Below, piece after piece: positions 1 through 34,399 of a stretch of 43,621 nucleotides of DNA (position 1 is its first letter; each line of letters opens with the position of its first letter). Source of the stretch: an uncultured bacterium. Lineage in GTDB: Bacteria > Cyanobacteriota > Cyanobacteriia > Thermostichales > PCC-7336. The position numbers and the translations under genes were made by a program. The DNA is taken from contig CAZAGN010000006.1 of NCBI GenBank assembly GCA_964484905.1, forward strand, positions 1-43,621. Direction: 5' to 3'. The notes beneath the pieces are model-generated. The model made no database searches, was not told the DNA's origin, and was given only the letters and a program-made list of their open reading frames with translations.

Positions 1-35
1 GCCCCCTCTACAGGAGCCCTTCTAGGTGATGCACT

Positions 36-1544: not shown

Positions 1545-1633
1545 AACAGGGATCCCTTAAAATCATTACTCAGGCTCAAATCAACTCATCAAAATTTGAT
1601 GCAGACAGCTAGATTAAACATCAGTCAAAACAG

Positions 1634-2737: not shown

Positions 2738-2816
2738 GGATATTTCTCCTAATGTTTAGACTAGACTCTGTCGGTTCAAAAGCCAACTATCAGAGGCAGA
2801 ATCATGGCCCACGGTT

Positions 2817-3646: not shown

Positions 3647-3711
3647 GCCTACTTTCTTGAGAATATGTGTCTAAGTTGATGGCTGAAGTGTATTCCTGAA
3701 TGCTTATACTC

Positions 3712-4830: not shown

Positions 4831-5173
4831 AGAGTTTCCCTCATGTGAACCCAAACAGGTAGAGCACTTTAGTTTTCTATCTTAAGACAAATATACATTG
4901 CTTAATGATTACGTTGATGTATGCCAAGATACATGTGCGGCAAAATCTGGTAAAGCTCGAAAGAACGTGGCAGCCTGAAGCGTTAGGTCTCAAATTAGAT
5001 AGTTGTCGATGTGATTGTCGAAAATTTCTGACAAGAATAGGGTTGTACATGCCAGATGGGATAGCTGTTTGCACCGCTATGAGAGCTATTTCACAAAGGG
5101 AATCTGAAGACGTGAAGGGAGTTAGCGGCAAGTGGGGGTATAGAATTGCGAGTCGAAGTCGGAGAGAGAGGAA

Positions 5174-5605
5174 ATGAGCCGCTTACCCACAGTTGCAAAT
5201 AGCCACCGCAAAGCCTATCCTAGCGACCTGAGTGATGCGGAGCGGGAGCGAATCAAAGACCTCCTGCCCCAGCCCAAAGGCTTTGGCCATCCGGTAAGCG
5301 CCGACTTTCGTGAGATTCTCAATGATATTTTCTACGTGCAGCGAACAGGCTGTCAGTGGGAGATGATGCCCCATGACTTGCCGCCATACACAACGGTGTA
5401 TCACTACCTACGTAAATGGCAACGACAGGGAGTCTGGCAGCAGATGTACGCTCAGTTACGAAGCTCTGTACGGCAGCGTCAAGGTCGAGAAGCTGACGCC
5501 AGCGTGGCAATCCTTGACTCTCAGTCGGTGAAGACGACAGAAAAAAGGGGGAGGTTTACGGCTGTGACGGTGGCAAAAAAGTTAAAGGCCGTAAGCGGCA
5601 TGTAG
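5174..5605 (+). CDS. IS5-family transposase, OrfA (N-terminal part, upstream of the frameshift)
   Basis: YPSDLSDAERERIKDLLP...GRP-like...YVQRTGCQWEMMPHDLPPYTTVYHYLRKWQRQGVW is the typical IS5/DUF4096 N-terminal domain. ILDSQSVKTTEK carries the first DDE Asp. Confidence 0.85.
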   Translation: MSRLPTVANSHRKAYPSDLSDAERERIKDLLPQPKGFGHPVSADFREILNDIFYVQRTGCQWEMMPHDLPPYTTVYHYLRKWQRQGVWQQMYAQLRSSVRQRQGREADASVAILDSQSVKTTEKRGRFTAVTVAKKLKAVSGM

Positions 5606-5994
5606 TGGTCGATTCCCAAGGACTACTGCTAGGCGTATTCGTGAGTGAAGCGAATGCATCTGAACGTTTAGGTGCGGTTGTTCTGTTAGCTGAGCTAAAG
5701 CAGCAAGCCCAGTTGAGACGTGTGAAGGTTATTTGGGTTGACCAAGGCTACAGTGGCACTCGCTTCGCTGAGCAAGTGAGACAGATTTGTGGTGAGCACG
5801 TCCGTGTAAAGGTCATTCAGCGTCAATCGCCCGTATTTGAGCTCATGCACAAGCGATGGATTGTTGAGCGTACCTTTGGCTGGCTTAATCGGTTTCGGCG
5901 TTTGAGCAAAGACTATGAACTCTATCCCGAGACAAGTGAAGTGATGATTTATGGTGCTCTCTTTCACCTTCTCCTCAGACGACTCGCTCTTTAA
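5605..5994 (+). CDS. IS5-family transposase, OrfB (DDE catalytic part). Probably expressed as an OrfAB fusion by a -1 frameshift at the A6G run at 5541-5547.
   Basis: The -1 frame is open from 5518. It reads ...KKGEVYGCDGGKKVKGRKRHVVVDSQGLLL, which restores the conserved IS5 motif G(Y)D(G)GKKVKGRKRH. VWVDQGY and RWIVERTFGWLNRFRRLSKDYE supply the second Asp and the Glu. Confidence 0.85.
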   Translation: MVDSQGLLLGVFVSEANASERLGAVVLLAELKQQAQLRRVKVIWVDQGYSGTRFAEQVRQICGEHVRVKVIQRQSPVFELMHKRWIVERTFGWLNRFRRLSKDYELYPETSEVMIYGALFHLLLRRLAL

Positions 5995-6039
5995 CTTTTA
6001 CTTTATAAATCAGCTCTTAAGGAGTCTCTTATGCGAGGC

Positions 6040-6372
6040 TCAAACCAAGCCATTGAACCTGCCTAGGTCTTTGGCGTCTGCATACAGAGTCCAAGCCTCG
6101 GTACGGATGAATAGTCCTATCCCGTCTGTGGTGAACTGGGTTAACCCCGAGGGGGTTTCTACGATGTGTGTAGCTGGTATGGCTTCCAAAGCCTTGTGAA
6201 AGTAATCTGCTAGCAGTTTCTTGGGCACCCACAGATTCTTTCCTGTGGAGCTAATTGCATGTAAGTCGTCGGGGTAGTGGTTCACGGTTCTGAGTGCTTC
6301 ATTTTGATCGCCCTTGGGGTCGGGCAAAGTTCTAAACGAGAGCAGTAGCATTCCAAAATCAACAGGATTCAT
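6040..6372 (-). CDS. Hypothetical protein (110 aa). No family recognised.
   Basis: ORF only. It sits downstream of, and on the same strand as, 6436..6759, and its stop lies ~20 nt from the IS right end. Confidence 0.35.
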   Translation of the reverse strand: MNPVDFGMLLLSFRTLPDPKGDQNEALRTVNHYPDDLHAISSTGKNLWVPKKLLADYFHKALEAIPATHIVETPSGLTQFTTDGIGLFIRTEAWTLYADAKDLGRFNGLV

Positions 6373-6435
6373 TTCAATAACTCCAAAGGGGAAAGATACC
6401 CGCTGCCAGTTTCCTAGCGGCGGGTGTGGGTAGTC

Positions 6436-6759
6436 CTAGCGCGTTGCTTCGGTGACGACATCACTCACAAGCAGGTTGATGCTCGTGGCCACCTCCGAAA
6501 ACAGACGGGTGGGATTGGCAGTAGTGGTGATGGTGTTACGGGTGCTGATGGCCTGGGCTTTGGTGGCTTGGGCAAGTTGAACCGCTGCTTCGACTGTGGC
6601 ATTCAGACGGCGGCGGGTGAGCACACCAGCTCGGTAGACGGCGATCAAGATCCGTTTCCAGTCAATAGACGCGATGCATTGAATGGCGTTAACTAATGCC
6701 ATAACGAAAAGCACTAAGGATGCTGCGAGCAAGGTGTGGGCTTTGAAGTTAGGTTGCAT
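6436..6759 (-). CDS. Hypothetical small membrane-anchored protein (107 aa)
   Basis: N-terminal hydrophobic helix (HTLLAASLVLFVMALVNAI), then an Ala/Thr-rich, probably helical region. No family recognised. Confidence 0.35.
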   Translation of the reverse strand: MQPNFKAHTLLAASLVLFVMALVNAIQCIASIDWKRILIAVYRAGVLTRRRLNATVEAAVQLAQATKAQAISTRNTITTTANPTRLFSEVATSINLLVSDVVTEATR

Positions 6760-7168
6760 TGTGTTTATCTCCGTGATTGTGGGTGGCGATGCGAGATGTG
6801 CAAGAGTGGGTGCCCTAGCGCTAGCAACTAGGGCTGTAGGCGGTAGCAGATTTGTTTCTAGGAGCGATGCCAGCGCCCCTATGGATTAGAGAAAGGTTGG
6901 CAGTACGGTTGCCAGCGGGCTAATTACGCAGCCACGCGCCCCTATTTGCAGTTGGAGTTCTGTTGGGTGGGGTTCCGCATCCCCGCGCTGGTATCGGTGC
7001 GACCGAGTGTTTTAGACCCTTGCGAGGTCTGCCCTTAAGGGGCAAGCTTGCGAGTTAGCCGTTGGCATGGATCCCGCACGACCATCAGCGCTAATGGCCA
7101 CTTAAAAGGGGTGCCGTTTGGGTTGACTTTCGGGCTTGCGGTCGGCGTCCGTTTCCCATGCCTTACTA

Positions 7169-7243
7169 TAGCGTAAACTTTTTAACGGTGTCAAGACATT
7201 AGCGTAAAAAATCTGCGATAGTGGATACATGTGTTTAGCGAAT
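7169..7243 (+). promoter_or_regulatory. Three direct copies of TAGCG(T)AA(A/T) just upstream of, and overlapping, the XRE gene start. Candidate operator set.
   Basis: TAGCGTAAA at 7169-7177 and 7200-7208. TAGCGAAT at 7236-7243. A TTGACT -35-like hexamer lies upstream (~7123). Confidence 0.4.
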
Positions 7244-7246
7244 CCC

Positions 7247-7447
7247 ATGAGCAAGATAGAGCAACTAAGGCAAAGCGCAGGACTTACACAGCGCCAGCTT
7301 GCTGACGCTGTGAACGTGACCGAGAGCACGATCAGGAACTGGGAGCATGATCGCAACGGCACCGTGATGGTCGAAAAGGTTTACCGACTTTGCAAGGCGC
7401 TTAACTGTTCCCTTGAGGATCTGGTGGCAGGGGAATCAGAGGACTGA
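7247..7447 (+). CDS. XRE-family (Cro/CI-type) helix-turn-helix transcriptional regulator
   Basis: MSKIEQLRQSAGLTQRQLADAVNVTESTIRNWEHDRNG...VYRLCKALNCSLEDLV is a textbook HTH_3 pattern. The track ORF starts at 7229, but the ATG at 7247 is more typical. Confidence 0.85.
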   Translation: MSKIEQLRQSAGLTQRQLADAVNVTESTIRNWEHDRNGTVMVEKVYRLCKALNCSLEDLVAGESED

Positions 7448-7708
7448 TCTCATTGAATTTGATTTTGGTTCAACGAGTTAAACATTCTGTGATGTGAATC
7501 TAGTTTTCGGTTCGGCAGATAGTTATTTTTGTGCAAAGCCATTAGGCTCAAACCCAGTCAGGGTATGGAATTGAGGGGTTATTTTTTTTGCGAATCTGGC
7601 TAACCCTTATCACCGTGAATGGCTCTAACCCCTTACATGGCCCCGACTCTACAGCGGGTCGCAATGTCAGCGATCTACAATTTGATCATCCGATGAGGTA
7701 CTTACTAA

Positions 7709-7891
7709 ATGCCGACTAAAGCGAAACACTTCCGCCGCCGCCGACCCCACTCAATTTATCTTTTAGATAGGCATTCAGCCGTACTCAGAAGCATTGCCGA
7801 CGAACGATCCATGTCTCTGTCGCAGACAGTTGAGACGCTTCTTTTGCCGTTCCTTGAGCGACAACCTGAGTATTTGGATCAGATCAAATAG
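7709..7891 (+). CDS. Small basic protein (60 aa), possibly a ribbon-helix-helix (CopG/Arc-like) DNA-binding protein
   Basis: A basic N-terminus (KAKHFRRRRPHSIYL) is followed by helices (HSAVLRSIADERSMSLSQTVETLLLPFLE), which fits a strand-helix-helix layout. It lies directly upstream of the primase-helicase. Confidence 0.5.
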   Translation: MPTKAKHFRRRRPHSIYLLDRHSAVLRSIADERSMSLSQTVETLLLPFLERQPEYLDQIK

Positions 7892-7900
7892 AGCAAAAAT

Positions 7901-7968
7901 TTCCCCCCAACTCGGCAAAGTCAGGGGGGGTATCGGAACTAAAGCCGATTGTTTTTGTTTTGTGTTTT
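7901..7968 (+). terminator. Hairpins followed by a T-rich tract; possible attenuator or terminator between the RHH gene and the primase-helicase
   Basis: A C6 (7903-7908) / G7 (7924-7930) hairpin, then ATCGG(7932-7936)...CCGAT(7945-7949), then TGTTTTTGTTTTGTGTTTT. Confidence 0.35.
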
Positions 7969-8200
7969 CAGTCTTCCGACTGGTTCCCCCCGTTATTAAG
8001 CAGAGGTCACTCTTTGAGTTTACATCAAAATCCTATAGCGTTTAAGGCACCCACCGCTGGGTTTACGCGATTCTCAAATTCCAAAGTTCCTACACCCATT
8101 TTTGACAGAGTGCCGTATGACTGTCGGAAATGCCCCAATGAAAAAGTCAGTCTTTGCAAGACGCAGTGCTTCGCTTGCCTTGATGTGGAGGGCAACGAAG

Positions 8201-10822
8201 ATGCTTAACCACATAAGCGTTTTGCCTGACCAATGGCCCCTTGTCGCCGTGCGTGACAAAGCCCCGTACATGGCCGGGTGGCAGCGTACCCCACTGAGTA
8301 AGTTTGAAGTTCTAAAGCAAGCCAAAAATGGCGCTGCTAACGGCGCTGGCATTCTGCTGGGTGGCGATTGGCTAGCGGTCGATATTGACGGCACTAGCGC
8401 TGCTTTGATGGCTGAAGCTTTATCGGGATTACCAATTGGTGAGGCGTTGCCAACAACTGTGCAATTCACCAGCGGCAAACCAGGGCGGTGTCAGCTTCTC
8501 TATCGTGTGCCCACTGAGTACCAGAACCGCATCACTGGCAGGGCATTTTTAACGGGTGCGACTGATGCGAGCGGCAAGCCCGAACAGTTAGATTTTCGCT
8601 ACACAGGCAAGCAATCGGTACTTGTCGGTGCTCATCCTGAAACGGGTTCATATCGCTGGTTACACAGCCCAGATACAACACCCGTGGCAGATTGCCCAGA
8701 GTGGATTTTGGATCTACTCAGTAAGCCGCACGCCATCGCTAACAGCGGCAACAGTGCCAGTGATCAGAGCGTGTCGTTAGAGGTGCTTAGCGAGGCGCTA
8801 GACGCCATTGATCCTGATTGCGACTACAACACATGGTTAGGCATTGGCATGTCTCTGTACGCCCTTCCAGATGAGGCGGGGTTTGATATGTGGGATCAGT
8901 GGTCTAGCCGTGGCAGCAAATATCGGCCAGGGGAGACGGTCGTTAAATGGGATTCATTCGCGGGTAAAGATAGCCGCCCAGAGGCAGTGATCGCGATCGC
9001 GAAAGATCGTTACGGGTGGGCGTTACCGAAACCAACACCAGTGGTTAAGACGGATGACGATGATCAATCGTTCGAGGTCCTTGATCACGGCTACGAGTAT
9101 CACGGCGATCTGCTGTGTGATGAGCTGAGAGCGCCTATCGAGCGGATAGCAGCAGGCTTTAACCAACCGCCGGTCATCGCCACAGCCGCACTACTCACGG
9201 TGGCTGCATCGTGTCTCAAGGTTGGCACCATGCTGGATATCGGCGGCTCTACCAATTGGAAAGTACCGCCGATTCTCTGGACGTGCGTTGTCGGTGAGTC
9301 AGGTAGTACGAAATCGCCCTACCTCGAAAAACTGGTGTCACCCCTGTATCAGTTGCAAACCTCTGATGATGCTGTCTATGAGGCCGCGAAAAAGCAGTAC
9401 AAAGCTGATCTAAAAGCCTATGAGGCAGCTAAAACCCGTAGCGGTTCGACAGACGATCTGCCAGATGAACCCACCAAACCGACTGCCACAGAGCGCTATG
9501 TGAGCGACTACACCCTGGAGGCACTGTCTCGGATCGTTGCAGAGCAACCGGAAAACGGGCTGCTGGTCTGGAACGATGAGCTAAAGCTGTTTTTTGCCTC
9601 AATGGATGCCTACAAAAAGCAGGGAGGTGGCGACCGCGCTCAGTGGCTAGGTTTACGCAACGGATCCGGTCTCAAACGGAACCGCAAGGGCGATGATCGT
9701 GTTTCTGTAGCTAGAACCGCTGTGAGCGTTCTAGGCGGCATTCAGCCCGAAGTGCTGGCGAAACTCATCAATGGCGATCGCGACGGGGCTGATGGACTTT
9801 ACCCGCGTTTCCTATGGCTGCGCATGGATGAATCTCGCCGAATGCCGCCGCTAAACGGTACACGCTGGGATGCCACAGAGCGATTCAGGTCGGTTTATGA
9901 GCGACTTAGCCGTCTAGAGCCTAGGGAATACCGCCTAAGCCCGCAGGCGTTTCGCACATTCAATGAATGGCATATGGAATGTGAGAGTGGCCGCATAGAG
10001 GCATCTAACGGGCTCATCAAGGCAACCATCTCTAAATACAAAGGGATGGCTGCCAGTGTTGCACTGATTCTGCATTGTCTGAACAGCGTCGCCAGTGGTG
10101 AGTCTGTGAGTGGAACCATCCCCGAAAGCACCATGATTCGGGCGATAGATTTCACGCGCTGGGCAGTCAATCAAGCTAAATCTCTATTTGCTGTGAATGC
10201 CATCACCACAGATAAGGAAACGGCTAGTATTCATAGACTCGTAAAGGAGTTTTCTGGCAAGGGCTGGATAAAGTCTAGAACGATACGGGATTTTCGGACT
10301 GAAAAGGGTAATAAAAAAATGTCTGCCCAAGAAACTAGAGACTTCATGCACTCTCTAGTTACAAGCGGCGTTGCCATAGATAACGACAAGTCGCCCAACG
10401 ATCCAAAGTACGAAATTCAGATTTTATCTAAAACTCAGTCCATTCAGTCCATAAATCCTGAACCGCAGTCACAGCAAGCGGTTGAGGATGGACTGAACCT
10501 CAGTCCATCCTCAGTCCACACTCAGTCCATAAGTGCTGAAGACCGACCCTTGGAAGAAAAGTGGACTGAACACGGACTGAGCATGGACTTAAACTCAGTC
10601 CACTCTGAAACGCAGTCACAGCAAGCGGTTGAAGAAAAGTGGACTGAATGGACTGAAAATCCGGAAGAATCTGATCGCTCCACTCCAGTGAATGAACCTC
10701 AACCAGACAACAGCGATTGTCATCCGAGTGTTGTTGCTACCGAGGTGATGCTAGATAAAGATGCTGCCGAACTTGCCGCTATGGCGATGTTTCTAGGAGA
10801 TTTGGCCGATGAGTTTAACTAA
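8201..10822 (+). CDS. Replication protein: bifunctional Prim-Pol (AEP) domain, PriCT-2 domain and DUF3987-type P-loop helicase, with an acidic repeat-containing C-terminal tail
   Basis: Prim-Pol: LPDQWPLVAVRDKAPYMAGWQ, LAVDIDG, DFRYTGKQSVLVGAHPETGSYRW. PriCT-2: YNTWLGIGMSLYALPDEAGFDMWDQWSSRGSKYRPGETVVKWDSF. Walker A: VVGESGSTKSP. The likely start is the ATG at 8201, preceded by GGAGGG. The track ORF begins at 8102. Confidence 0.85.
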   Translation: MLNHISVLPDQWPLVAVRDKAPYMAGWQRTPLSKFEVLKQAKNGAANGAGILLGGDWLAVDIDGTSAALMAEALSGLPIGEALPTTVQFTSGKPGRCQLLYRVPTEYQNRITGRAFLTGATDASGKPEQLDFRYTGKQSVLVGAHPETGSYRWLHSPDTTPVADCPEWILDLLSKPHAIANSGNSASDQSVSLEVLSEALDAIDPDCDYNTWLGIGMSLYALPDEAGFDMWDQWSSRGSKYRPGETVVKWDSFAGKDSRPEAVIAIAKDRYGWALPKPTPVVKTDDDDQSFEVLDHGYEYHGDLLCDELRAPIERIAAGFNQPPVIATAALLTVAASCLKVGTMLDIGGSTNWKVPPILWTCVVGESGSTKSPYLEKLVSPLYQLQTSDDAVYEAAKKQYKADLKAYEAAKTRSGSTDDLPDEPTKPTATERYVSDYTLEALSRIVAEQPENGLLVWNDELKLFFASMDAYKKQGGGDRAQWLGLRNGSGLKRNRKGDDRVSVARTAVSVLGGIQPEVLAKLINGDRDGADGLYPRFLWLRMDESRRMPPLNGTRWDATERFRSVYERLSRLEPREYRLSPQAFRTFNEWHMECESGRIEASNGLIKATISKYKGMAASVALILHCLNSVASGESVSGTIPESTMIRAIDFTRWAVNQAKSLFAVNAITTDKETASIHRLVKEFSGKGWIKSRTIRDFRTEKGNKKMSAQETRDFMHSLVTSGVAIDNDKSPNDPKYEIQILSKTQSIQSINPEPQSQQAVEDGLNLSPSSVHTQSISAEDRPLEEKWTEHGLSMDLNSVHSETQSQQAVEEKWTEWTENPEESDRSTPVNEPQPDNSDCHPSVVATEVMLDKDAAELAAMAMFLGDLADEFN
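10433..10657. repeat. Iteron-like array: 6 direct TCAGTCCA, 4 exact inverted TGGACTGA plus 2 degenerate copies, and a 22-nt direct repeat. All lie inside the 3' end of the primase-helicase ORF.
   Basis: TCAGTCCA at 10435, 10444, 10500, 10511, 10522, 10595. TGGACTGA at 10489, 10562, 10640, 10649. Degenerate copies: CGGACTGA at 10573 and TGGACTT at 10584. CGCAGTCACAGCAAGCGGTTGA at 10464-10485 and 10611-10632. Confidence 0.6.
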
Positions 10823-12740
10823 CTTGCGCTTCCTTGGTTGGGATTTTGAGACGATGCAGAAGGTCGCTAAAGTACACCGGATACCTATTGATTCATCGAT
10901 CAGAAATGATGAACATAAAGCAGCCCTAAAACGGTTACTAAGCTATCCACCTACGCCCCGTCATGGGATTACCCATAACGGTGATCGCTTAGAGGTGGAT
11001 TTAGACCGGCTAGATCTTGGCTATGTACCCATGGTGAAGCCGCCTATCTGGTCAGGTCAGATACCTGTGAAACCATGGGCTGAGGCTGAGAAAACTATCT
11101 GCTATATCGATATTGAAACCACAGGGCTAGAACCCAGCACCGACCGCGTGATCGCCGTCGGCATTCTCAGGAATGGGGAGTACAGGATTATTGCGGATGA
11201 CGATGAGCCTGCATTGCTGAGTGAGGCGATATCAGAGGTGTCTAAAGGGATTATCTGTGGTCACAACGTCTTTAAATTTGATCTGCCCTTTCTAATGACA
11301 CGGTGCAGCCTTCACCGAATCAAGCACTCATTCCGTAAGGCCAATAAAACCAAACTAATCACATCCAGCTCAATAAATGGGAAACCAATTGAGTACACAC
11401 CGATTTATGCCCGTGGCGTGGATGTTGTAGACACGCTGCACCAAGTCTCAATCTATGACAAGGCAGCGGCTAAGCTCTCTGGCTATGGCCTTAAAAACAG
11501 CGTGATCGAGCTGGGGTTGCGTGAGGATCGGCGGCTAGAGCTGTCGCCATCTGAGATCCGCGAGAGCTGGGAAAGTGGCAACACTGAACCCTTACACGAG
11601 TATCTACGGTACGACCTAGACGACACCCGCCTACTGGCTAACTACCTACTGCCAGTGGTGTGGCAACAACAGGCTTATGTACCAAATCTCAATTTCCAGA
11701 CCCTAGCGGTGGCCTCACCAGCGCTCAAGGCACAAATGATACACCAGTCTCTATCACTGCCTTATGCGGTCGCTGATGTGTCAATGAAATACACGGGCGG
11801 GGGCATCGCCTGTCATACACCTGGATTACACCGGAACCTAGCCAAGATTGATGTTTCAAGCCTTTACCCGTCGCTGATGCTGCGCTATGGCCTATGCAGC
11901 CGTAAAGACCCCGAAAACAAGTTTCTAGGGGTGTTGGCCTACATGGTTCAGGAACGCTTGCGGCTAAAGGCACTGGCTAAAGCTGGTGACACGGTAGCGG
12001 ATCAGCAGCAGGGAGCGCTGAAGATTCTGATCAATGGTTCCTATGGCTTCTTTGGCACGGGTTGCTATGCCTACAACGATTACGAATGCGCTGCCCTAGT
12101 GACCGCCTATGGGCGTAAGGTTCTCTCGGTAATGGAGCGGGTGATCGTGGATCAAGGTGGCGTGCTGGTCGAATCTGATACCGATGGGGTGATGTTTACG
12201 GCTGATGACGCTGAGGCCGTTACCAATGCAGTACAGGCCGCTCTACCGGATGGGATCAGCGTTGATCTTGAGTTCTCTGGGTGGTGTGGCTACGTTCCCA
12301 AGGCAAAAAACTATGTGCTTTTCTCGCGGGACAAAAAGCCCCATGTGAAGGGTTTGTACCGCAAGCGCAACCGCTGCCAGCTAGAACGCGAGTTTGCGAT
12401 TGGTTTCCTGCGACGGTGGTTTTTTGACTGCCAGAGGGGTGCAATGTCCTACTACACCCAAACAGTGAGCCGATTAGAGTCAGGTGATTACCCCTTGGCT
12501 GAGCTATCCATCACGCGGAAAATCGCAGCTAACGAAAAGAATCTATCGCATCTGGGAAACCCTGGCGATAAAGTGACCTACTGGGTTGGTTGTGATCGAG
12601 CTGGACGCAAACCCAAAGCCATTAAAACTAACGAGCATCCCTATTGGACTGATCACTATGTGGGCATCCTTGATGGCGTCTTAGGATCAATGGGAATTAC
12701 CCATGATCGCGAGCAACTCACCCTATTCGAGTGCGCTTGA
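10809..12740 (+). CDS. polB: Family B DNA polymerase (compact, 643 aa) with an intact 3'-5' exonuclease domain
   Basis: ExoI ICYIDIETTG. ExoII GHNVFKFDLPFL. ExoIII YLRYDLDDT. Motif A KIDVSSLYPSLM. Motif B KILINGSYGFFG. Motif C LVESDTDGV. KxY-like AKNYV, followed by VKGLYRKRN. An AGGAG lies 9 nt upstream. The start overlaps the primase-helicase stop by 14 nt. Confidence 0.9.
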   Translation: MSLTNLRFLGWDFETMQKVAKVHRIPIDSSIRNDEHKAALKRLLSYPPTPRHGITHNGDRLEVDLDRLDLGYVPMVKPPIWSGQIPVKPWAEAEKTICYIDIETTGLEPSTDRVIAVGILRNGEYRIIADDDEPALLSEAISEVSKGIICGHNVFKFDLPFLMTRCSLHRIKHSFRKANKTKLITSSSINGKPIEYTPIYARGVDVVDTLHQVSIYDKAAAKLSGYGLKNSVIELGLREDRRLELSPSEIRESWESGNTEPLHEYLRYDLDDTRLLANYLLPVVWQQQAYVPNLNFQTLAVASPALKAQMIHQSLSLPYAVADVSMKYTGGGIACHTPGLHRNLAKIDVSSLYPSLMLRYGLCSRKDPENKFLGVLAYMVQERLRLKALAKAGDTVADQQQGALKILINGSYGFFGTGCYAYNDYECAALVTAYGRKVLSVMERVIVDQGGVLVESDTDGVMFTADDAEAVTNAVQAALPDGISVDLEFSGWCGYVPKAKNYVLFSRDKKPHVKGLYRKRNRCQLEREFAIGFLRRWFFDCQRGAMSYYTQTVSRLESGDYPLAELSITRKIAANEKNLSHLGNPGDKVTYWVGCDRAGRKPKAIKTNEHPYWTDHYVGILDGVLGSMGITHDREQLTLFECA

Positions 12741-12852
12741 CATACTCCCACGGCTAAAGCGCGTGGGCTTTACGGCACGATCTGGTAAACATGATCAATA
12801 AACTCGCGTGAGTCCCCCAGCTTTTTAGGTGGGGGAGGTAGAGCGTCTGAGT

Positions 12853-12876
12853 GAGGGGGTTCAACGCCCCCTTTCT
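12853..12876 (+). terminator. Intrinsic-terminator-like hairpin downstream of polB
   Basis: GAGGGGG-TTCAACG-CCCCCTT followed by TCTCT. Two further GC hairpins precede it (CCCACG...CGTGGG near 12748, CCCCCA...TGGGGG near 12813). Confidence 0.4.
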
Positions 12877-13399
12877 CTAAAGACTGAGCTCGACCAGATT
12901 CTGATCTAACCATCTACTCAGTGGGAGCAACTTACCCCTGCCTAGAGACAGGTAGAAGGTAGACGAAGCTCGTGAATCCTATTACGCAGCGCCCGGCCTG
13001 GCATCTGTGACGACTCATCAGGCCCAGAGTGTATTGGGATTCGTTGTTGTATATTCCTGTCCCATATTGAATGATACGACCTAAGTCTTCTGAGGTAAGA
13101 TAATGAAGCAATATCAAGGTTCGTAATTAGCAAAGCTATGTAGACTGAATATACAGATCAAAAGCTGAGCAAAATCTACGGCAATTACTTACACTAGGGT
13201 GAGTTCCATATACTACTCACTCTAAAGGTGTCTTTATTGATTTAAGCTGTCAATCGCATTTGTTTGCTCGTAACAAGATTAAATACAGCCACCATTGGAG
13301 TAGTTCTAGTCAGTGGACTTCTGTACCGCTTCTGAGGCTTTCTCAAGTCAGGTTCTGGAGGAGTTCATGGTTACTCAATTAAAGTAAGGAGAGTTAGTC

Positions 13400-14110
13400 A
13401 TGCGTGTTTTCGCTATCATTTCTGCTTGTATGCTGGCAGTTACGCCTGTGTCAGTACTTGCTCAAAGCTCAGTCATTGCTCAGCTTTATAGGCAGCTAAA
13501 CACAGCACTGAGTGAAGGTGATTATGCCACTGTGCAGTCTGTAGCTCGAAATTTGGCCACCCTAGATACGCCTCGACAGCGCGAGCTTGAGAGTTTAGCG
13601 ACGGCAATTGATACAGGTGATTCTCTTGCACCTTATTTAGGTGCGTTAATCGAGAGCCTTCAAGATACACCTTGGCCTGAGCCACCCTCTGCTTCCGTAC
13701 CTGCTCAACCCGCGGCTCAAACCCAAGAAAGCTCTGACTCACCTGCAACAGCCACACTTCCTAACACTCGCATCGTTCGGGTTCCTTTTGGACGTACAGG
13801 CACTCCCTTTACTCAGGGTGATCTCAGCGTCCGTATTGAAGGCGAGACACAAGTTGGGCGGCTAGCGGAATTGGGTGTCAGAGCAATGCTGGTTCACCCT
13901 GAAGGCTGCTCTGACTGGGCATCGATCACCTTTAGAGCCTACGACCGCTTTCAGATGGTACATACCTGGCGAGAGCAGACTGTAGGCTTTGTGGGCCGTG
14001 AATGGCGTGTCAACTCACGCATTCCAGGTAATTTTGGCTCACCAGAAATGTCAAACTATCAGTTTTTTAGACCTGACTTCATTGATGTATCTGAAGCTGA
14101 ATGCCGTTAA
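13400..14110 (+). CDS. Secreted hypothetical protein (236 aa), element cargo
   Basis: Strong SD (AAGGAG). Signal peptide MRVFAIISACMLAVTPVSVLAQS. Pro/Ala/Gln linker. The C-terminal domain matches no family I recognise. Confidence 0.6.
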   Translation: MRVFAIISACMLAVTPVSVLAQSSVIAQLYRQLNTALSEGDYATVQSVARNLATLDTPRQRELESLATAIDTGDSLAPYLGALIESLQDTPWPEPPSASVPAQPAAQTQESSDSPATATLPNTRIVRVPFGRTGTPFTQGDLSVRIEGETQVGRLAELGVRAMLVHPEGCSDWASITFRAYDRFQMVHTWREQTVGFVGREWRVNSRIPGNFGSPEMSNYQFFRPDFIDVSEAECR

Positions 14111-14276
14111 CTACTCTCTGTATTGCTGTTCGCGATCGCGAGTGGGGGCAATGTCCTAGTTCTGGTGCATCACGGCAAATTGCTCGATCAGGCCATAACC
14201 AAGCTACGGGCCGTGTGTGGCGTGGCCGTGGGTGCCATCAAAGCCGATTACGCCCCCAACCTATCCCGACCCATTC

Positions 14277-14831
14277 TTAATCCTTACTAACCGACCATTG
14301 GATAGCGCCTTTCCACCGGCTCCGCGATCGCGAGAACTTGAACCCCAGCGCCTCAAATTCTCCACCGTGGCCGGTAATCGTTGAAGGTTGTACGTCCAAC
14401 AGTTGAGCCAGTGTTGCTGTGGGCAGTAGCCACCGACAGGTAGCAGCTCGCTCCAGGTGCTCGAATGACTCAAGTGATATGGTTGTGTCCGGAATATCCG
14501 AGCTATCCGGAACAGGTGCTAGAGCGGTGCTACCGGCCCGAACAATACCTAGCTGTGTGTCCTTTAGGTAATCGGCAGCAGCGCGGCGGCTGTCAGCTCT
14601 GAGGTAGGTGTGCAGCTCTAACATTTGCCTCATCTGGTCAAGACTTAAGTAGGTTTGCCTACCCACTCTCACAGGGGCAATATCCAGCTCTTTGAGACGG
14701 GCGTAGAAACTGGTACGGCCTAGTTTCAGAAATTCCATTAGCCCAGATACCGACACATGATCGGTACCATCAATGCTGATACGCTCCAGGTCATTCAGAT
14801 CCTCGGGGCGGGGGCTGGTTATCTCATCCAT
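14277..14831 (-). CDS. Helix-turn-helix DNA-binding protein (two HTH-like segments). Regulator, excisionase or partition-like role unknown.
   Basis: VSVSGLMEFLKLGRTSFYARLKELDIAP and LPTATLAQLLDVQPSTITGH both look like HTH segments. The likely start is MDEITS at 14831. The track ORF extends to 14876. Confidence 0.5.
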   Translation of the reverse strand: MDEITSPRPEDLNDLERISIDGTDHVSVSGLMEFLKLGRTSFYARLKELDIAPVRVGRQTYLSLDQMRQMLELHTYLRADSRRAAADYLKDTQLGIVRAGSTALAPVPDSSDIPDTTISLESFEHLERAATCRWLLPTATLAQLLDVQPSTITGHGGEFEALGFKFSRSRSRWKGAIQWSVSKD

Positions 14832-14916
14832 TGTTCGGTACGTCCGTGCTATCCCGAACAGTACCCCAGCTCGCACTCATTGGCATCTGTACCGAATAGC
14901 TGAGATGTCCCGAACA
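14486..14916. promoter_or_regulatory. Six copies of an 11-nt motif TRTMCSGAAYA around and within the HTH gene
   Basis: TGTCCGGAATA 14486. TATCCGGAACA 14504. Inverted GTACCGAACAA (complement of 14831-14841). TATCCCGAACA 14850. TGTACCGAATA 14888. TGTCCCGAACA 14906. Confidence 0.45.
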
Positions 14917-15185
14917 CCTGTAGACTGTTCCGCCTAGCTTTGAGAGCCGCACAATGGCTGGTAGTGTCTCGCGATCGTCTACTACTCAGGAAAAGGGTGT
15001 TTACACTTTGGTTTACATCTCGACAGTGCCTCAGCGAGCCAAATGCGGTAGTGGCTGGGTTTCGAGAGATTGTGCGGGGATACCTGGAGCTGTTGACAGG
15101 TGATGAATCTGAGACGATCGTTATCCGTGAATGGGTATCAGGTGAGGTTAATCGATGTCTAAATCAAAAAAACCAGAATAGGTAT

Positions 15186-16112
15186 TTATTCAAAAACAAA
15201 TCCCACTTCATTTGTTGGCATTCCCCATGAGAGTCTGTAGGTTTCAAGTTTCAGTACCTGAGCCTCCCAAGCACTGATACAGCTACTATACTCGCACGGG
15301 AATCTTCCAGGAATTTGTAATGTTATTCTGGCAATTTGATAGTATAAGAGATCATCGTCAACACGCATATTAAGTTTTTCGCGCATCTCTTTAATCATTT
15401 CTTCAGATGTTGTAACCGTAACGTAGTCATCATCAGAGAAATGAGTTCCGGTAGAAATTCTTGTATTCAGTCTCCCTTCATACGAGTTGTATTCATACAG
15501 CCGAAGTATCATTTCGCCATCTCTTCTGATAATTTCGTTATCTATGGCGACCATATCTAGAATAATAGTCTGCCCCTCGTAGTCTTCGGGGAATAAAACC
15601 AGGTCAGAAATACTTACTAGTGGGTATTCGAGTACGTCTTCAGGGACTGCGGCTACGGCAATAGTCGGGGTTGGAGTTGATGCTGTTGGCGTTGCTTGCA
15701 CTGTCATAGGTGGAGGTGTGCCAGGTGGCATGGGGGCACCGCGTCTAGATGGTTGTGATGGGGTGGTAGCCACCTCCCCAACGCGATAGACCTCACCAAT
15801 CTCGCCACCCACAAACTGAGCAAAATTTTCAGCCCGTTCAAGGCTACTAAAGCTGGCTAGTTGAACCCCCTCTATACCTTTGCCTAAGTCGATCGCGAAA
15901 GCGTCCTGGCAGAAACGACTCGCTACCTGCTCAAGGTTCAGGTGTCGCACGATTACCGGATACCAAGTGGTAGCATTCGGATCGCTGCCATCACCACAAC
16001 TTTCCATCGGGAAGCCCTGGCCGGTAGCTGGTTGCACTAGAACTGTTAGACCCGCAAGTAAGCCCACACCCACCTTGATACTTCGCTTTGTAACCTTAGA
16101 TAGTGGGCGCAT
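15186..16112 (-). CDS. Secreted hypothetical protein (308 aa): signal peptide, SPOR-like N-terminal domain (tentative), Pro-rich linker, unknown C-terminal domain. Element cargo.
   Basis: Signal-like VGVGLLAGLTVLVQPATGQG. WYPVIVRHL...VQLASFSSLERAENFAQFVGGEIGEVYRV resembles a SPOR fold pattern. Linker PSQPSRRGAPMPPGTPPPMTVQATPTASTPTPT. The 3' half is markedly AT-rich. Confidence 0.6.
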   Translation of the reverse strand: MRPLSKVTKRSIKVGVGLLAGLTVLVQPATGQGFPMESCGDGSDPNATTWYPVIVRHLNLEQVASRFCQDAFAIDLGKGIEGVQLASFSSLERAENFAQFVGGEIGEVYRVGEVATTPSQPSRRGAPMPPGTPPPMTVQATPTASTPTPTIAVAAVPEDVLEYPLVSISDLVLFPEDYEGQTIILDMVAIDNEIIRRDGEMILRLYEYNSYEGRLNTRISTGTHFSDDDYVTVTTSEEMIKEMREKLNMRVDDDLLYYQIARITLQIPGRFPCEYSSCISAWEAQVLKLETYRLSWGMPTNEVGFVFE

Positions 16113-16263
16113 GAGTTGTCTTCCGCATTTTGTTGTCTGCTAGTAACAGGCTACCTAGACAGAATGTTGCAGAAGCAGAGTGTGTCGTTTTCTTGTTTTA
16201 ACGAGCACTACCGTTACCAATGCTGGGCTAAAAACGACAGCAGAGACTGGGAAAGGTAAAGCG

Positions 16264-16581
16264 ATGTTTTCAAACGCAGAGTTTTGTTACTTACGCTGGA
16301 CACGTACCGGCACAATGCAATCCCAAGGGTTCTGTCGTAGCACCGTTACTGAGTGGATAACCCGGAGGGACGTGAAAGTGTCGCTATCGAGTCAAATCAA
16401 GGTCGCAAAGGCGTATGGCTACACCACCTTGGATGATTTTCTGGATGGTGAGGACTTGCCAGGTTCAAGCCGAACCAATCCAGTCAGAGCCTCAACAACC
16501 GCCCTGGTGCCAGAGCCTCAGTCGTCTGAGGACTTGATGTTGATGTCTGGTACAACCTTGGGGTTAACGGAACGGGCATAG
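16264..16581 (+). CDS. Possible small XRE-like HTH protein converging on the integrase (candidate recombination directionality factor or regulator)
   Basis: LRWTRTGTMQSQGFCRSTVTEWITRRDVKVSLSSQIKVAKAYGYTTLDDFL loosely follows an HTH_3 pattern. It overlaps the integrase 3' end by 64 nt on the opposite strand. Weak call. Confidence 0.3.
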   Translation: MFSNAEFCYLRWTRTGTMQSQGFCRSTVTEWITRRDVKVSLSSQIKVAKAYGYTTLDDFLDGEDLPGSSRTNPVRASTTALVPEPQSSEDLMLMSGTTLGLTERA

Positions 16582-17684
16582 TGCCTCAGCATCGTCTGGG
16601 TGCTATGGCCAAGCTGAGCCGCTAGGTCTACGGGTGCCATTGACTGAATGGCATGGGAGATGAGTGTGTGTCGTAACATCATCTGCGGTCTGTAAGGCAC
16701 CCCAGAAAGCTCCATAACCCTTACCCAGCAGTGTTTCATCAACGTTCTTTGGTGTAGTGGCTTGCCTGTCTTACCCTTGAAAACCAGATCATCAGGCTTG
16801 CCTCTATCCAGGCTTAATAACAGTTCAATCAGTGACTCTGAGCAGTAGAATACGCGAGATTGGTGAGTTTTACTACCCTTACGAATTTGTTCATGCGACT
16901 TTCCCACTACCATCGCAGAACGAAAGCGAATACTGCTGCAATCTGCTTCAATATCCCCCCAGCGCAAACCAATCCCCTCTGAGAGACGGCAACCCGTCAT
17001 AGCCAGAAATGAATAGAACGGCACGTAATAGGCATAGTGGCGACTCTCAGCCATTGTCTTGAATATCTGCTGTAGTTCGGCTTCTGTGAAGGGCTGGTAG
17101 GCATCCTCTGATCGCCCCTTGATCATGCGACGTAGCCCCGCAAACGGGTTTGGCTGACTCCAGTAGCCACACTCAATCATCCATCTATAAAATCCGTGGC
17201 AAACAGAAATTCGCTTACGAATCGTTTCTGGACCGTTGCCCCGATCTCTCAGGACACCAATTAAATCAATGGCATCCGAGCGGGTCATGATCGGATCTAG
17301 GGTCTTGAGAATGTTAACCAGCGACACATACATAGCGCTGATTGTCCGGGGGTTTGTTACCAGGGCGGACTTCTGGCGTAGGTACTCTGTCCAGTATTCA
17401 TCAAGGGGGAATGCTTCTGTCCTGCCAACGACGCCCCATTCACTCCAGTCAAAGGTGCCTGTAATGAGCTGAGCTGAGAGCTGTCTAGCGTCCCTCAATG
17501 CCTGTTTAACCGCAGGGGAGGTGTCAGGGATATGAAGATAAATCGTCTGCTGGTGCCGCCCCTTATATTCATCCCCCGGCTTGGGCGGTAGCGTGGCTCT
17601 CAATCGGAGATGGCCTGACCGTGACTCAATTCTGACTTTGGCGCGTTCGGTTTTAAGTTTCAAGTTTGCCTGTTCTACGTCCAT
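16518..17684 (-). CDS. int: Tyrosine recombinase / phage-type integrase with an N-terminal arm-binding-like domain
   Basis: TGCRLSEGIGLRWGDI (Arg I). MLRHTLISHAI (box II His/Arg). LGHSTQTMLRHYAR (His and catalytic Tyr). The N-terminus VRIESRSGHLRLRATLPPKPG resembles arm-type DNA-binding domains. Confidence 0.9.
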   Translation of the reverse strand: MDVEQANLKLKTERAKVRIESRSGHLRLRATLPPKPGDEYKGRHQQTIYLHIPDTSPAVKQALRDARQLSAQLITGTFDWSEWGVVGRTEAFPLDEYWTEYLRQKSALVTNPRTISAMYVSLVNILKTLDPIMTRSDAIDLIGVLRDRGNGPETIRKRISVCHGFYRWMIECGYWSQPNPFAGLRRMIKGRSEDAYQPFTEAELQQIFKTMAESRHYAYYVPFYSFLAMTGCRLSEGIGLRWGDIEADCSSIRFRSAMVVGKSHEQIRKGSKTHQSRVFYCSESLIELLLSLDRGKPDDLVFKGKTGKPLHQRTLMKHCWVRVMELSGVPYRPQMMLRHTLISHAIQSMAPVDLAAQLGHSTQTMLRHYARSVNPKVVPDINIKSSDD

Positions 17685-17838
17685 GTCCTAACTATGTCCT
17701 AGCTATGTGAGACTAACCTTACACAACTGGGGTTATCTGAGCACAACTGAGCTATAGTTTCGGTAGAGCAGGACAGGGGTTAAAGCCTTGTGGGACGTGA
17801 ATTAAGGGCTGTTAATCGTTAGGGACGTATCGGACATT

Positions 17839-18405
17839 ATGGCAACAGTGTTAGTGCTACTCGCAGATCGCTTTGAAGAGCTGGAGGCGATCGCGACCAT
17901 TGATATTCTGCGGCGGGCTAACCTGACGGTTATCACAGCGAGCTTGGCCGACAGTTTGACCGTTACAGGTAGTCATCAGATTACGGTGCTGGCGGATATT
18001 CGTCTGGATACGCATCTGGATGAGGTAGATATCAAGACATGGCTGATGACGGCCGATGCCCTGGTGCTGCCCGGTGGCCCGGGGGTGCAGCAGCTGCGGC
18101 AGGATGAGCGGGTGTTGGCCCTGGCGCGGGCTTTTTACGGGGCAGCAAAACTAACGGCGGCGATTTGTGCAGCGCCGCTGGTGCTTTCAGATGTAGGTTT
18201 ACTCGCTGAGCACGCCGCCACAAGTTGGCCAGGGGTTGCCCCCGAAATTCGAGCACAAGCCTACAGTGAGGCGCGGGTTGTGCGTGATGCCCATGTGATT
18301 ACCAGCCGAGGCGCAGGCACAGCGGTTGAGTTTGCCCTCACGATTGTCGCGGCGTTGGTCGATCAAACGACTGCCGACCAGATTGCCCTCGCGATCGTTG
18401 CCTAA
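17839..18405 (+). CDS. DJ-1/PfpI family protein
   Basis: LVLPGGPG and the nucleophile-elbow context KLTAAICAAPLVL, with VITSRGAGTAVEFAL at the C-terminus. Confidence 0.85.
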   Translation: MATVLVLLADRFEELEAIATIDILRRANLTVITASLADSLTVTGSHQITVLADIRLDTHLDEVDIKTWLMTADALVLPGGPGVQQLRQDERVLALARAFYGAAKLTAAICAAPLVLSDVGLLAEHAATSWPGVAPEIRAQAYSEARVVRDAHVITSRGAGTAVEFALTIVAALVDQTTADQIALAIVA

Positions 18406-18526
18406 GCTTGCGCCAGACCCGTAGCAAATCGACCCAACTCTGGATAACCCATAGAATTATCTCGCAATCACGTGGCTGCCAAAGCCACATGGTACACTCA
18501 AAACTCACGCGCGCTTGCACTGCTCT

Positions 18527-19444: not shown

Positions 19445-19453
19445 GACATTCTT

Positions 19454-20452: not shown

Positions 20453-20471
20453 CGACTTCACCTAAACTCTG

Positions 20472-21566: not shown

Positions 21567-21593
21567 ATGTTCAATCAACATCACGAGCCATCT

Positions 21594-34284: not shown

Positions 34285-34399
34285 CAATAGATACAGAAAG
34301 CAAAACGTTCATCTCTACTCAAGAGACGGAAGTAGGGGAAACCCGAAGGAACGCGCCTCATTGCAACATACACACTGCCTAGTTATGGAGGCGATCCTC

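Follow-up and report, generated by a model that had tools for sequence, protein, structure and literature searches.

The closest described counterparts of the element treated here are the tycheposons of marine Prochlorococcus and the Staphylococcus aureus pathogenicity islands and phage-inducible chromosomal islands (SaPI/PICI). Tycheposons have an integrase of a lineage-specific clade and a replication module of ~2-4 kb (Hackl et al.; 10.1101/2020.12.28.424599). In SaPIs, Rep helicases bind 6-12 iterons beside the rep gene via a C-terminal winged helix, and these iterons occur in opposite orientations and have island-specific sequences (PMC9371898). A block of ~12 kb that can be compared with both is located in a stretch of 43,621 nucleotides from an uncultured cyanobacterium (contig CAZAGN010000006.1), the whole of which is referred to as the window. 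This block is probably a small integrative element that is self-replicating, but not self-transferring, and that belongs to a recurrent cyanobacterial family. As judged from the sequences compared, the conserved core of this family consists of a tyrosine integrase, an archaeo-eukaryotic primase (AEP)/superfamily 6 (SF6; DUF3987) helicase, a coupled G3-like family-B DNA polymerase (PolB), and an intragenic iteron array; the remaining genes would be exchangeable cargo.

By its layout, the element resembles tycheposons in having an inward-facing tyrosine integrase at one end, a size in the range of 10-20 kb, variable cargo, and a cyanobacterial host. In addition, relatives of the window element integrate at the 3' ends of tRNA genes as tycheposons do. 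In contrast to tycheposons, its replication module comprises 4.5 kb and encodes a full proofreading PolB coupled to the primase-helicase, and the window copy has neither a tRNA gene nor a partial tRNA repeat. With respect to the tycheposon layout, the integrase of the window is separated by cargo open reading frames (ORFs) from the genes for primase-helicase and PolB, which occupy the other end, whereas the replication module lies beside the integrase in the relatives. An earlier note on this block, made from the DNA letters alone and referred to as the original prediction, had assumed that satellites and tycheposons normally lack a PolB of their own. The tycheposon preprint, however, lists 'polymerases, primases, helicases' among the hallmark genes (10.1101/2020.12.28.424599).

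With SaPI/PICI, the element shares a similar size, an integrase, a repressor, a primase and self-loading initiator helicase with a C-terminal winged helix, and element-specific iterons in both orientations, although these functions and the winged helix are predicted here (PMC9371898). SaPI Rep belongs to the pre-sensor II insert clade of AAA+ proteins, has 3'-5' polarity, and is used together with the host polymerase (PMC9371898), whereas the window element encodes a DUF3987 (SF6) helicase, an AEP primase, iterons inside an ORF, and its own PolB. Furthermore, PHROGs and Pfam searches of the window found no packaging or helper-interference genes (terS, capsid-morphogenesis or redirecting genes) as in SaPI/PICI, and no such genes are conserved in the family. 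By analogy, the window element would thus function most like a SaPI/PICI replicon, while being laid out like a tycheposon.

Parts of the gene set are also known from other integrative elements. Long-B Argonaute islands of the AgaPP/AgaPH type are similar in having an integrase, an AEP PrimPol, a DUF3987 helicase, defence-type cargo, and tRNA integration (PMC11724360). In these islands, however, PrimPol and helicase are separate proteins, PolB is absent, the PrimPol has been proposed to be the replicase, and the hosts are of the Bacteroidota type (PMC11724360). Pipolins likewise combine a family-B polymerase with a tyrosine recombinase, and their cargo is variable or of the defence type. They are bounded by attachment-site (att) repeats, often at tRNA genes; such repeats are found here in three relatives and not in the window copy. 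Their piPolB is primer-independent, however, and they have no primase-helicase (PMC5695915, PMC11551731). A pipolin was ruled out, because the window PolB is of the primer-dependent type according to its best matches and its E-S-DTDG motif C and because its gene is coupled to that of a primase. Casposons are also integrative elements encoding their own PolB; they were ruled out as well, because no ORF matches Cas1 profiles of Pfam or NCBIfam, the block lacks terminal inverted repeats, and the integrase is a tyrosine recombinase. Both exclusions are in agreement with the original prediction. Its analogy to self-synthesizing elements is a loose one, as the PolB would be part of an origin-dependent replisome. 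A description of this gene set as a named element family was not found in full-text literature searches, the coverage of which was incomplete. The claim of an undescribed system can be retained for an apparently unnamed recurrent family, but this family consists of known parts on a known plan. It is set apart by a G3-like proofreading PolB that is constantly present and coupled, and by an iteron array that lies inside a gene.

The conserved core and its relatives in cyanobacteria

In the window, the core is represented by the following features:

8201..10822, plus strand: primase-helicase; Pfam Prim-Pol 1.7e-19, PriCT_2 1.7e-15, DUF3987 3.3e-57
10417..10674, no strand: iteron-like array inside the 3' part of the primase-helicase ORF, candidate replication origin
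10809..12740, plus strand: family-B DNA polymerase, G3-like, with a 3'-5' exonuclease domain; Pfam DNA_pol_B, DNA_pol_B_exo1, RNase_H_2
16518..17684, minus strand: tyrosine recombinase (integrase), inward-facing, at the right end; Pfam Phage_integrase 8.9e-15, PHROG_1 integrase 7e-39

These assignments agree with the original prediction of a Prim-Pol/PriCT-2/DUF3987 primase-helicase, a translationally coupled PolB, and a tyrosine integrase at the extreme right edge. The start of the primase-helicase is probably located at 8201 (873 aa) and not at 8102, as indicated by the gene call on the independent Logan contig L001. The element is also contained in Logan contig SRR7048222_367004. The catalytic residues R, K, R, H, and Y of the integrase are kept in an alignment with XerD and the integrases of related elements. 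The predicted absence of virion and conjugation genes was also confirmed, as no ORF matched a capsid, portal, terminase, tail, lysis, relaxase, or type IV secretion system (T4SS) family in Pfam, NCBIfam, PHROGs, or PADLOC. Relaxase, T4SS, and coupling-protein families gave no match in Pfam or NCBIfam; an oriT may be present. By its gene content, the block is neither a prophage nor an integrative and conjugative element.

Relatives were collected in a locus survey with one genome per species, which yielded 40 loci, and in a metagenome scan, which yielded 61 loci. The core of integrase, primase-helicase, and PolB recurs in more than 25 cyanobacterial loci, so that the synteny survey called for in the original prediction shows that the window cassette is not a one-off. 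Loci with a PolB that is ~40% identical are Nostocales plasmids and contigs, which have neither an adjacent primase-helicase nor an integrase. Loci with at least 48% PolB identity are found in Chamaesiphon, Chroococcales, Thermosynechococcaceae, Hydrococcus and other metagenome-assembled genomes (MAGs), and on many metagenome contigs. In these, a DUF3987 primase-helicase is encoded directly upstream of PolB wherever enough upstream sequence is present, with few exceptions that include L011, L016, L046/L072, L068, and L073. The genes for primase-helicase and PolB overlap by 11-17 nt in the window and in L004, L005, L013, L035, L052, L053, and L057.

In L012, both proteins are fused in one ORF of 1571 aa, and relatives of the PolB in a library of 1.8 billion proteins include many single chains of 1400-1900 aa with the order Prim-Pol, PriCT_2, DUF3987, PolB. 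These single chains resemble the HelPrimPolB replicases, such as gp55 of Lactococcus phage 1706 (PMC7544198, PMC4889955, PMC12926913). The fusion described there is phage-borne and contains an SF3 helicase, whereas the fusions found here contain DUF3987 (SF6) and at least one of them lies in an integrase-bearing locus (L012). One of the single chains of this order (P0259, 1698 aa) has a Dam-type adenine methyltransferase domain between helicase and polymerase.

The integrase of the relatives is encoded either 2-5 kb upstream on the same strand or, as in the window, downstream on the opposite strand (L011, L012). According to an all-versus-all clustering of the ORFs of 12 loci, only the integrase, a small Xis/AlpA-like helix-turn-helix (HTH) protein, the primase-helicase, and PolB are conserved. 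The variable cargo of the relatives includes CTD7, MC3, and LmuB_C proteins, a resolvase, MazF, an ImmA/IrrE-XRE pair, ANT, and HNH, and no structural gene is present in the more than 25 loci sharing the core. Apart from an XRE regulator, none of the accessory genes of the window is common to any relative.

The integrase gene adjoins a tRNA gene in 12 loci, where it starts ~100-150 bp from the tRNA 3' end. Target tRNAs of the relatives are those for Pro, Val, Phe, Thr, Cys, and Gly. In L006, L035, and L058, exact repeats of the tRNA 3' end (45, 51, and 50 bp) bound elements of 11.9 kb, 11.4 kb, and 12.9 kb, respectively. The presence of elements with the same core at many tRNA targets shows repeated and independent insertion.

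Two of the related loci contain further sequences at the insertion site. Beyond the att repeat of L035, a second, truncated integrase and several insertion sequence (IS) elements are found (16096-21830), and an integrase fragment lies upstream of the element in L057 (1-2700), together with a 143-aa HTH protein with DUF1804/Terminase_5 matches just below threshold. Both loci look like several elements stacked in tandem at one site.

Close relatives of the PolB are found on only two among 2.9 million IMG/VR contigs, which argues against a virus. One of the two is a phage-like contig of 89.7 kb (L046, identical to L072) encoding a PolB with 48% identity to that of the window. It has no primase-helicase adjacent to PolB and no iteron array, but it carries two IS605 OrfB/TnpB genes as well as genes for ribonucleotide reductase subunits and a thymidylate-synthase-like protein. 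This contig shows that the PolB gene is common to phages and islands. An element of an Acaryochloris MAG (L055/L056) has the order integrase, ORF, small ORF, Bro-N, and Prim-Pol/PriCT_2/DUF3987 without PolB and without a 3' iteron array. Since this element has no PolB, related islands exist with and without a polymerase.

Primase-helicase, candidate origin, and polymerase

Along the primase-helicase, an AEP Prim-Pol domain, PriCT_2, and a DUF3987 (SF6, MCM-like) helicase domain, in which GESGSTKS forms the Walker A motif, are followed by a region resembling a winged helix, a linker, and a C-terminal tail that is conserved. Proteins of the Prim-Pol/DUF3987 type are known as replicative primase-helicases (PMC11724360, PMC4889955), and experiments with a DUF3987 protein have demonstrated both its 5'-3' helicase activity and its binding to the PrimPol (PMC11724360). 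According to PMC4889955, DUF3987 proteins belong to SF6 and have a C-terminal winged-helix domain. It is proposed that the primase-helicase of the window serves as an origin-binding initiator.

The candidate origin is an array of the 8-mer TCAGTCCA, which occurs 11 times in the window compared to ~1.2 expected copies, a number reached in none of 100 shuffles. Ten of the 11 copies lie within 222 bp (10435-10656) in both orientations. Degenerate copies bring the array to ~13, and an AT-rich stretch adjoins it. As single-stranded DNA, the array segment folds with -58.5 kcal/mol (z = -8.5 versus shuffles), and this strong folding is the reason for spurious matches to microRNA precursors in Rfam. 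In 22 related loci, an array occupies the corresponding place, within the final few hundred bases preceding PolB; it consists of 6-12 copies of one 8-mer and holds nearly all copies of this 8-mer in the respective locus. The 8-mer itself varies by locus, with AGTAGTCA, TAGTGACA, TAGTAACA, ATCGTCAG, TGCCCGCA, GTAGTCCA, and CGGACGAA as examples. Such an array is absent, with 2-3 copies of any 8-mer at most, from eight loci of the plasmid clade, the phage-like contig, and the PolB-less Acaryochloris element.

Because the arrays keep their position but differ in sequence between loci, they are most simply read as replication origins, each of which fits the initiator encoded by the same element. 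The comparison with L057, the nearest relative, provides an example. Its PolB is ~71% identical to that of the window and the helicase core of its primase-helicase 82%, while identity is 45% in the segment following the helicase, 28% in the iteron-bearing linker, and 61% in the last 28 residues; the iteron is CGGACGAA in L057 versus TCAGTCCA in the window. A separate observation concerns the other end of this protein (L057 5996-8695 versus window 8201-10822), where the N-terminal 260-290 residues comprising the primase region are 19% identical and not recognizably homologous, which suggests a swap of the primase domain within an otherwise conserved protein.

Two other origins of the primase-helicase were considered. 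A link to the cyanobacterial plasmid Rep protein CyRepA was rejected, since CyRepA consists of DUF3854 and DEXDc and is a different protein (PMC10079941). A chimera, in which the primase-helicase would derive from a PolB-less element of the Acaryochloris type, was dropped because the L057 pair is closely related to both window proteins. In L006, the primase-helicase gene has a perfect 22-bp tandem duplication at its 5' end (7781-7824; TGGGTTTATCTGTCATGCAGGA, twice).

The PolB protein has 643 aa, and its ATG at 10809 overlaps the stop codon of the primase-helicase gene by 14 nt, which suggests that both are translationally coupled. All motifs are intact, namely ExoI (DIETTG), motif A (DVSSLYPS), motif B (KILINGSYG), and motif C (ESDTDG). 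In an alignment of 20 homologs, D101, D348, Y353, K405, D457, and D459 are invariant, and so is the motif C glutamate E455 (E-S-DTDG). Matches in the PDB comprise archaeal PolB, Pol delta, and Pol II, with archaeal PolB and Pol delta being the closest. Identities are 38-41% to PolBs of large cyanobacterial plasmids (177-395 kb), 36% over 84% of the query to the best phage matches from Nostoc/Anabaena phages A-1 and N-1, and 27% over 67% of the query to PolBs of Salinibacter phages.

The group of plasmid and Nostoc phage PolBs was noted earlier by Chenard et al. (PMC4916379). Kazlauskas et al. placed the PolBs of Nostoc and Salinibacter phages in the bacterial group G3 of the main PolB cluster and describe the E-x-DTDG motif C as a synapomorphy of G3/Pol-epsilon-N (PMC7544198). 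Based on the motif C glutamate and the pairwise matches to phage PolBs, the window PolB resembles G3 enzymes. G3 is the second largest group of bacterial PolBs and experimentally uncharacterized, as stated in PMC7544198 and PMC12926913; the latter, a survey from 2026, also reports a beta-clamp-binding motif for G3. The window PolB ends with QLTLFECA, in which QLTLF fits the beta-clamp-binding consensus, and QLxL recurs at the C-termini of its homologs. Only ~95 aa precede ExoI (D101), so that the N-terminal domain looks reduced, whereas G3 is described with a canonical N-terminal domain (PMC7544198). The passages of PMC7544198, PMC4889955, and PMC12926913 dealing with these proteins contain no genomic-context analysis of G3 PolBs. 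The polymerase is therefore of a known family.

Some homologs show an interruption close to motif B. A 967-aa ORF of L047 (825-3728) encodes a PolB that carries an extra ~350 residues at the site corresponding to window residue 409, which adjoins motif B. An intein or homing-endonuclease insertion would be placed in this way. The PolB match of the 967-aa protein P0261 is likewise split. In L083 (1396-3155), the match splits at the same residue without an insertion.

Boundaries, proposed cycle, and competing explanations

The original prediction described the block as integrase-bounded and ~11.8 kb long. In the window copy, the integrase marks the right end only. If the IS element at the left is a simple insertion and the taxis genes further left lie outside the island, the left end must be located within 245 bp (4855-5079 and 6020-6039). 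The resulting span is comparable to that of the att-delimited relatives (11.4-12.9 kb).

Several points weigh against the interpretation of the block as a mobile replicon. A search of 17660-17960 against 1-16500 with k-mers and blastn-short revealed no att repeat longer than 11-12 nt, and the longest matches were at chance level; the bounds stated in the original prediction could not be confirmed. ARAGORN found no tRNA gene at the element ends with default or relaxed thresholds. An empty site, which related genomes had been expected to provide together with the att junctions, was not found for the window copy, as no sufficiently close relative of the host was among the genomes compared; att repeats are seen in three relatives only. 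A circular form was not detected either, since none of six candidate contigs, four of them about element size, has a terminal overlap. Integration boundaries and mobility of the window copy are thus inferred from the relatives only. The box-II His position of the integrase is occupied by Met in the window and by Tyr in the relatives. The assignment of the winged helix is weak, being derived from sub-threshold hints and the general published statement on DUF3987 proteins. The iterons lie in coding sequence, so their signal could in part reflect peptide repeats, although a mere by-product of peptide repeats is unlikely because the repeats occur in both orientations. Clamp binding, origin function, excision, and replication are predictions from sequence. 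Finally, two poorly modelled proteins of 308 and 199 aa may leave room for small packaging or interference proteins.

Further attempts to define the ends gave similar results. The 9-mer GGTAGAGCA is common to both expected junctions (4858 and 17762), but with ~0.14 occurrences expected by chance it is not significant and was not accepted. No inverted repeat links the two ends of the block, and Rfam indicated no RNA family there at the gathering score or at E up to 10. GC content was rejected as a boundary marker, as the left host segment (47.8%) is below the element (50.6%). The exact DJ-1 and NAD-kinase proteins of the host have no database record; the nearest NAD kinases are 71-73% identical (Synechococcus PCC 7336- and Thermostichus-like) and their neighbourhood is not syntenic, and metagenomes gave no exact match to the DJ-1 gene at its 5' end. 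Since, in contrast to most relatives, the integrase is encoded downstream on the opposite strand, is not beside a tRNA gene, and an IS5 element is present at the left end, the window copy may be immobilized and no longer excisable.

For a functional member of the family, the following cycle is proposed. The integrated element would be held silent by the XRE-type regulator. On induction, the integrase would excise a circle, perhaps aided by the 199-aa HTH protein. The primase-helicase would then bind its own iterons via the winged-helix-like region following the helicase domain, melt the adjacent AT-rich DNA, load itself, and subsequently lay down primers. PolB, supplied by coupled translation, would extend these primers while being tethered to the host beta clamp by its C-terminal QLTLF. 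The amplified circle might either re-integrate or exit by a route that is not self-encoded, such as a helper-phage capsid, vesicles, or transformation.

This cycle would be refined, and not contradicted, if the element was a phage satellite of the PICI or PICI-like tycheposon type, since only the transfer route would differ. Such an element would be induced by a helper cyanophage, replicate with its own replisome, and be packaged into helper capsids, and its own PolB would free it from the helper polymerase or let it compete with it. The size of 11-13 kb, the integrase at the end, the repressor-type regulator, the primase/helicase with an adjacent iteron origin, and the variable cargo fit the PICI plan (PMC9371898; 10.1101/2020.12.28.424599), and cargo of the defence type or related to phages in the relatives (CTD7, MC3, LmuB_C, MazF, ImmA/IrrE-XRE, ANT, HNH) as well as Bro-N in the PolB-less L055 point in the same direction. 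PolBs of the same clade on the phage-like 89.7 kb contig and more distant ones in Nostoc phages A-1 and N-1 are also consistent with a link to phages. A satellite is nevertheless only a possible and on the whole rather unlikely explanation: terS, capsid-remodelling, and packaging genes are neither present in the window nor conserved in the family, close relatives are almost absent from IMG/VR, and no helper phage is known. It is clearly unlikely that the block is not one mobile unit, but a primase-helicase/PolB replicon fragment beside an unrelated integrase cassette (~13.99-17.8 kb) and separate cargo. This would account for the position of the window integrase, which is encoded on the opposite strand and separated from PolB by 3.8 kb of downstream sequence containing unrelated cargo, while it lies upstream on the same strand in most relatives, for the lack of accessory genes common to any relative, and for the presence of the IS element. 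In addition, a 15-nt near-repeat, with copies at 13989 and 17788, might enclose a smaller unit that includes the integrase, but with E 0.93 it is not significant and remains at chance level. Moreover, a downstream integrase on the opposite strand is also found in L011, where it is next to tRNA-Thr, and in L012, and the total span equals the size of the att-delimited relatives.

It is very unlikely that the primase-polymerase, helicase, and PolB form a domesticated or non-replicative module that serves the host in repair, damage tolerance, or defence. There are precedents for such roles, as the PrimPol and PriCT-DUF3987 helicase of an integrase-bearing island were shown to carry out translesion synthesis and end joining and to improve survival after DNA damage (PMC11724360), and a role in repair is described for E. 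coli Pol II as well as for some further PolBs of bacteria (PMC12926913). However, an origin is indicated by the iteron arrays, which are specific to each element and diverge together with the initiator, integrases accompany the module to many different tRNA sites, and the intact proofreading domain of PolB as well as the gene overlap with the primase-helicase, which suggests coupled translation, fit a replisome. Highly improbable is a decayed prophage or integrated plasmid remnant, in which the replication module would have been left after the loss of structural or transfer genes. The PolB family does occur in cyanophages and cyanobacterial plasmids of 177-395 kb, Prim-Pol/DUF3987 proteins are common on cyanobacterial plasmids of 20-95 kb with one on a 366 kb plasmid, and the window copy has an IS at its left end. 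Three relatives, however, have intact att repeats at a consistent distance of 11.4-12.9 kb, none of the more than 25 loci with the compact core has structural genes, PolBs of the plasmid clade (~40%) are accompanied neither by an adjacent primase-helicase nor by an iteron array, and all core ORFs are intact.

If the interpretation as self-replicating integrative elements is correct, it can be argued, though still tentatively, that they constitute a distinct, so far unnamed bacterial family, which would be the third PolB-encoding kind after casposons and pipolins and the first that is built around a complete origin-dependent mini-replisome. The components of this mini-replisome would be a fusion of AEP primase and MCM-like helicase-initiator, the iterons matching it, and a proofreading PolB similar to Pol epsilon, for which the host would provide the beta clamp. 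The large, uncharacterized G3-type PolB group would thereby gain a concrete role in mobile-element replication. For one branch of G3, this role is simple and testable: its members would replicate small integrative elements inside a bacterium, together with a primase of the archaeo-eukaryotic type and a helicase resembling MCM. Split and fused forms would record the merging of primase, helicase, and polymerase into single-chain replicases. Since initiator, origin, and polymerase may all be held in one segment of 4.5 kb, this module would be a compact system for origin-specific replisome assembly and could perhaps be used as a replicon for cyanobacteria. Insertion at many different tRNA genes and changeable cargo, which includes defence-type genes in relatives, make the elements plausible vehicles of gene transfer among freshwater and terrestrial cyanobacteria, as a counterpart to the tycheposons of marine Prochlorococcus.

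Accessory genes and flanking regions of the window copy

Besides the core, the following features were assigned to the block and its borders:

4855..5079, no strand: intergenic region between the host PatA-like gene and the IS according to the ORF map; together with 6020-6039 the sole room for a left att site (attL) if the element stops before the taxis genes
5080..6019, plus strand: IS5-family insertion sequence, located at the element's left end or slightly inward of it; transposase in two ORFs, 5174-5605 and 5605-5994
6040..6372, minus strand: 110-aa ORF, accessory or cargo; also called as a gene on L001
6436..6759, minus strand: 107-aa ORF with a hydrophobic N-terminus, accessory or cargo; also called as a gene on L001
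7165..7208, no strand: putative operator/promoter upstream of the XRE gene; two exact TAGCGTAAA repeats and a leftward promoter-like site
7229..7447, plus strand: XRE/Cro-CI-type HTH regulator; Pfam HTH_3 2.6e-14, Phage_CI_repr 1.3e-6
7709..7891, plus strand: 60-aa ORF, gene call on L001; sub-threshold RHH_7 hint, E 0.19
13400..14110, plus strand: 236-aa cargo ORF; signal-peptide-like N-terminus, judged by eye
14277..14876, minus strand: 199-aa probable DNA-binding protein; weak HTH_17 hint, E 0.053
15186..16112, minus strand: 308-aa cargo ORF; signal-peptide-like N-terminus, Pro/Thr-rich linker
17685..17838, no strand: right junction of 154 bp with the expected integrase-proximal att site, just upstream of the host gene
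17839-18405: host DJ-1-family gene, right of the junction

Most of the accessory genes listed in the original prediction were recovered. The two minus-strand ORFs at the left are supported by the gene calls on L001; neither the 110-aa nor the 107-aa ORF has a match in Pfam, NCBIfam, PHROGs, or PADLOC or a homolog in the related loci. The XRE regulator is confirmed by HTH_3 and is likely a switch or repressor of the element; the XRE protein of L057 is 35% identical. To the left of its gene, a non-coding stretch of 470 bp contains the putative operator. The predicted three sites reduce to two exact copies of the 9-mer TAGCGTAAA, at 7169 and 7200 and nowhere else in the window, and one degenerate site. 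The promoter-like site TTGACA-18-TATAGT on the minus strand (7194-7165) matches at 11 of 12 positions. The gene for the small 60-aa protein is supported by the L001 gene call, and a ribbon-helix-helix fold as predicted is possible in view of the sub-threshold hint.

The two cargo ORFs of 236 and 308 aa do have signal-peptide-like N-termini, although their description as secreted proteins relies on inspection by eye. For the 236-aa ORF, no match in Pfam, NCBIfam, PHROGs, or PADLOC and no homolog in the related loci was obtained; the 308-aa ORF has no match in these four collections either, and its single-sequence AlphaFold2 (AF2) model is unusable (pLDDT 35). The 199-aa protein, predicted to be an HTH protein, has no above-threshold match, but its weak HTH_17 hint is accompanied by a winged-helix-like model of medium confidence for residues 21-100 (beta-beta-alpha-alpha-beta-beta-alpha, pLDDT 65-83), while the whole single-sequence model is poor (pLDDT 52). 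It is a candidate excisionase or regulator. A fold search in the PDB returned no significant match, with nothing below E 0.3. Around the start of the 199-aa gene (14833-14920), several copies of a motif containing CCGAAC/GTTCGG (e.g. CCCGAACAGTACC) were noticed by eye; they correspond to the motif array named in the original prediction. The predicted small HTH ORF of 133 aa found no support; it is doubtful and overlaps the 3' end of the integrase gene.

The ORFs without assigned function sum to ~1150 aa, the largest having 308 aa. The search for hidden structural genes among them by HMMs and structure prediction, as proposed originally, gave no HMM match to such genes, but the models of the 308-aa and 199-aa proteins are poor. 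PADLOC annotated the cargo of the window with generic HTH matches only.

The IS at the left end has imperfect terminal inverted repeats (5082-5098 and 6001-6017) and looks like a simple insertion at a TA; its transposase resembles annotated IS5-family transposases from cyanobacterial plasmids. The near-repeat TTGTGGG(C/A)CGTGAAT of 15 nt mentioned above lies at the 3' end of the 236-aa ORF (13989-14003) and in the right junction (17788-17802).

To the left of the element, the segment 1-4854 encodes MCP-like, TRAP-type solute receptor, CheW-like, CheY-like, and PatA-like proteins and thus represents a taxis/chemosensory cluster. It has 47.8% GC and no HIP1 (GCGATCGC) site, whereas on the right side of the element GC is 55.7% and HIP1 occurs 0.47 times per kb. 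The left segment may itself have been acquired or be part of a larger island. Unrelated to the element, a glutamine riboswitch aptamer is located on the plus strand at 34304-34357 (Rfam RF01739, 64 bits versus a gathering score of 35).

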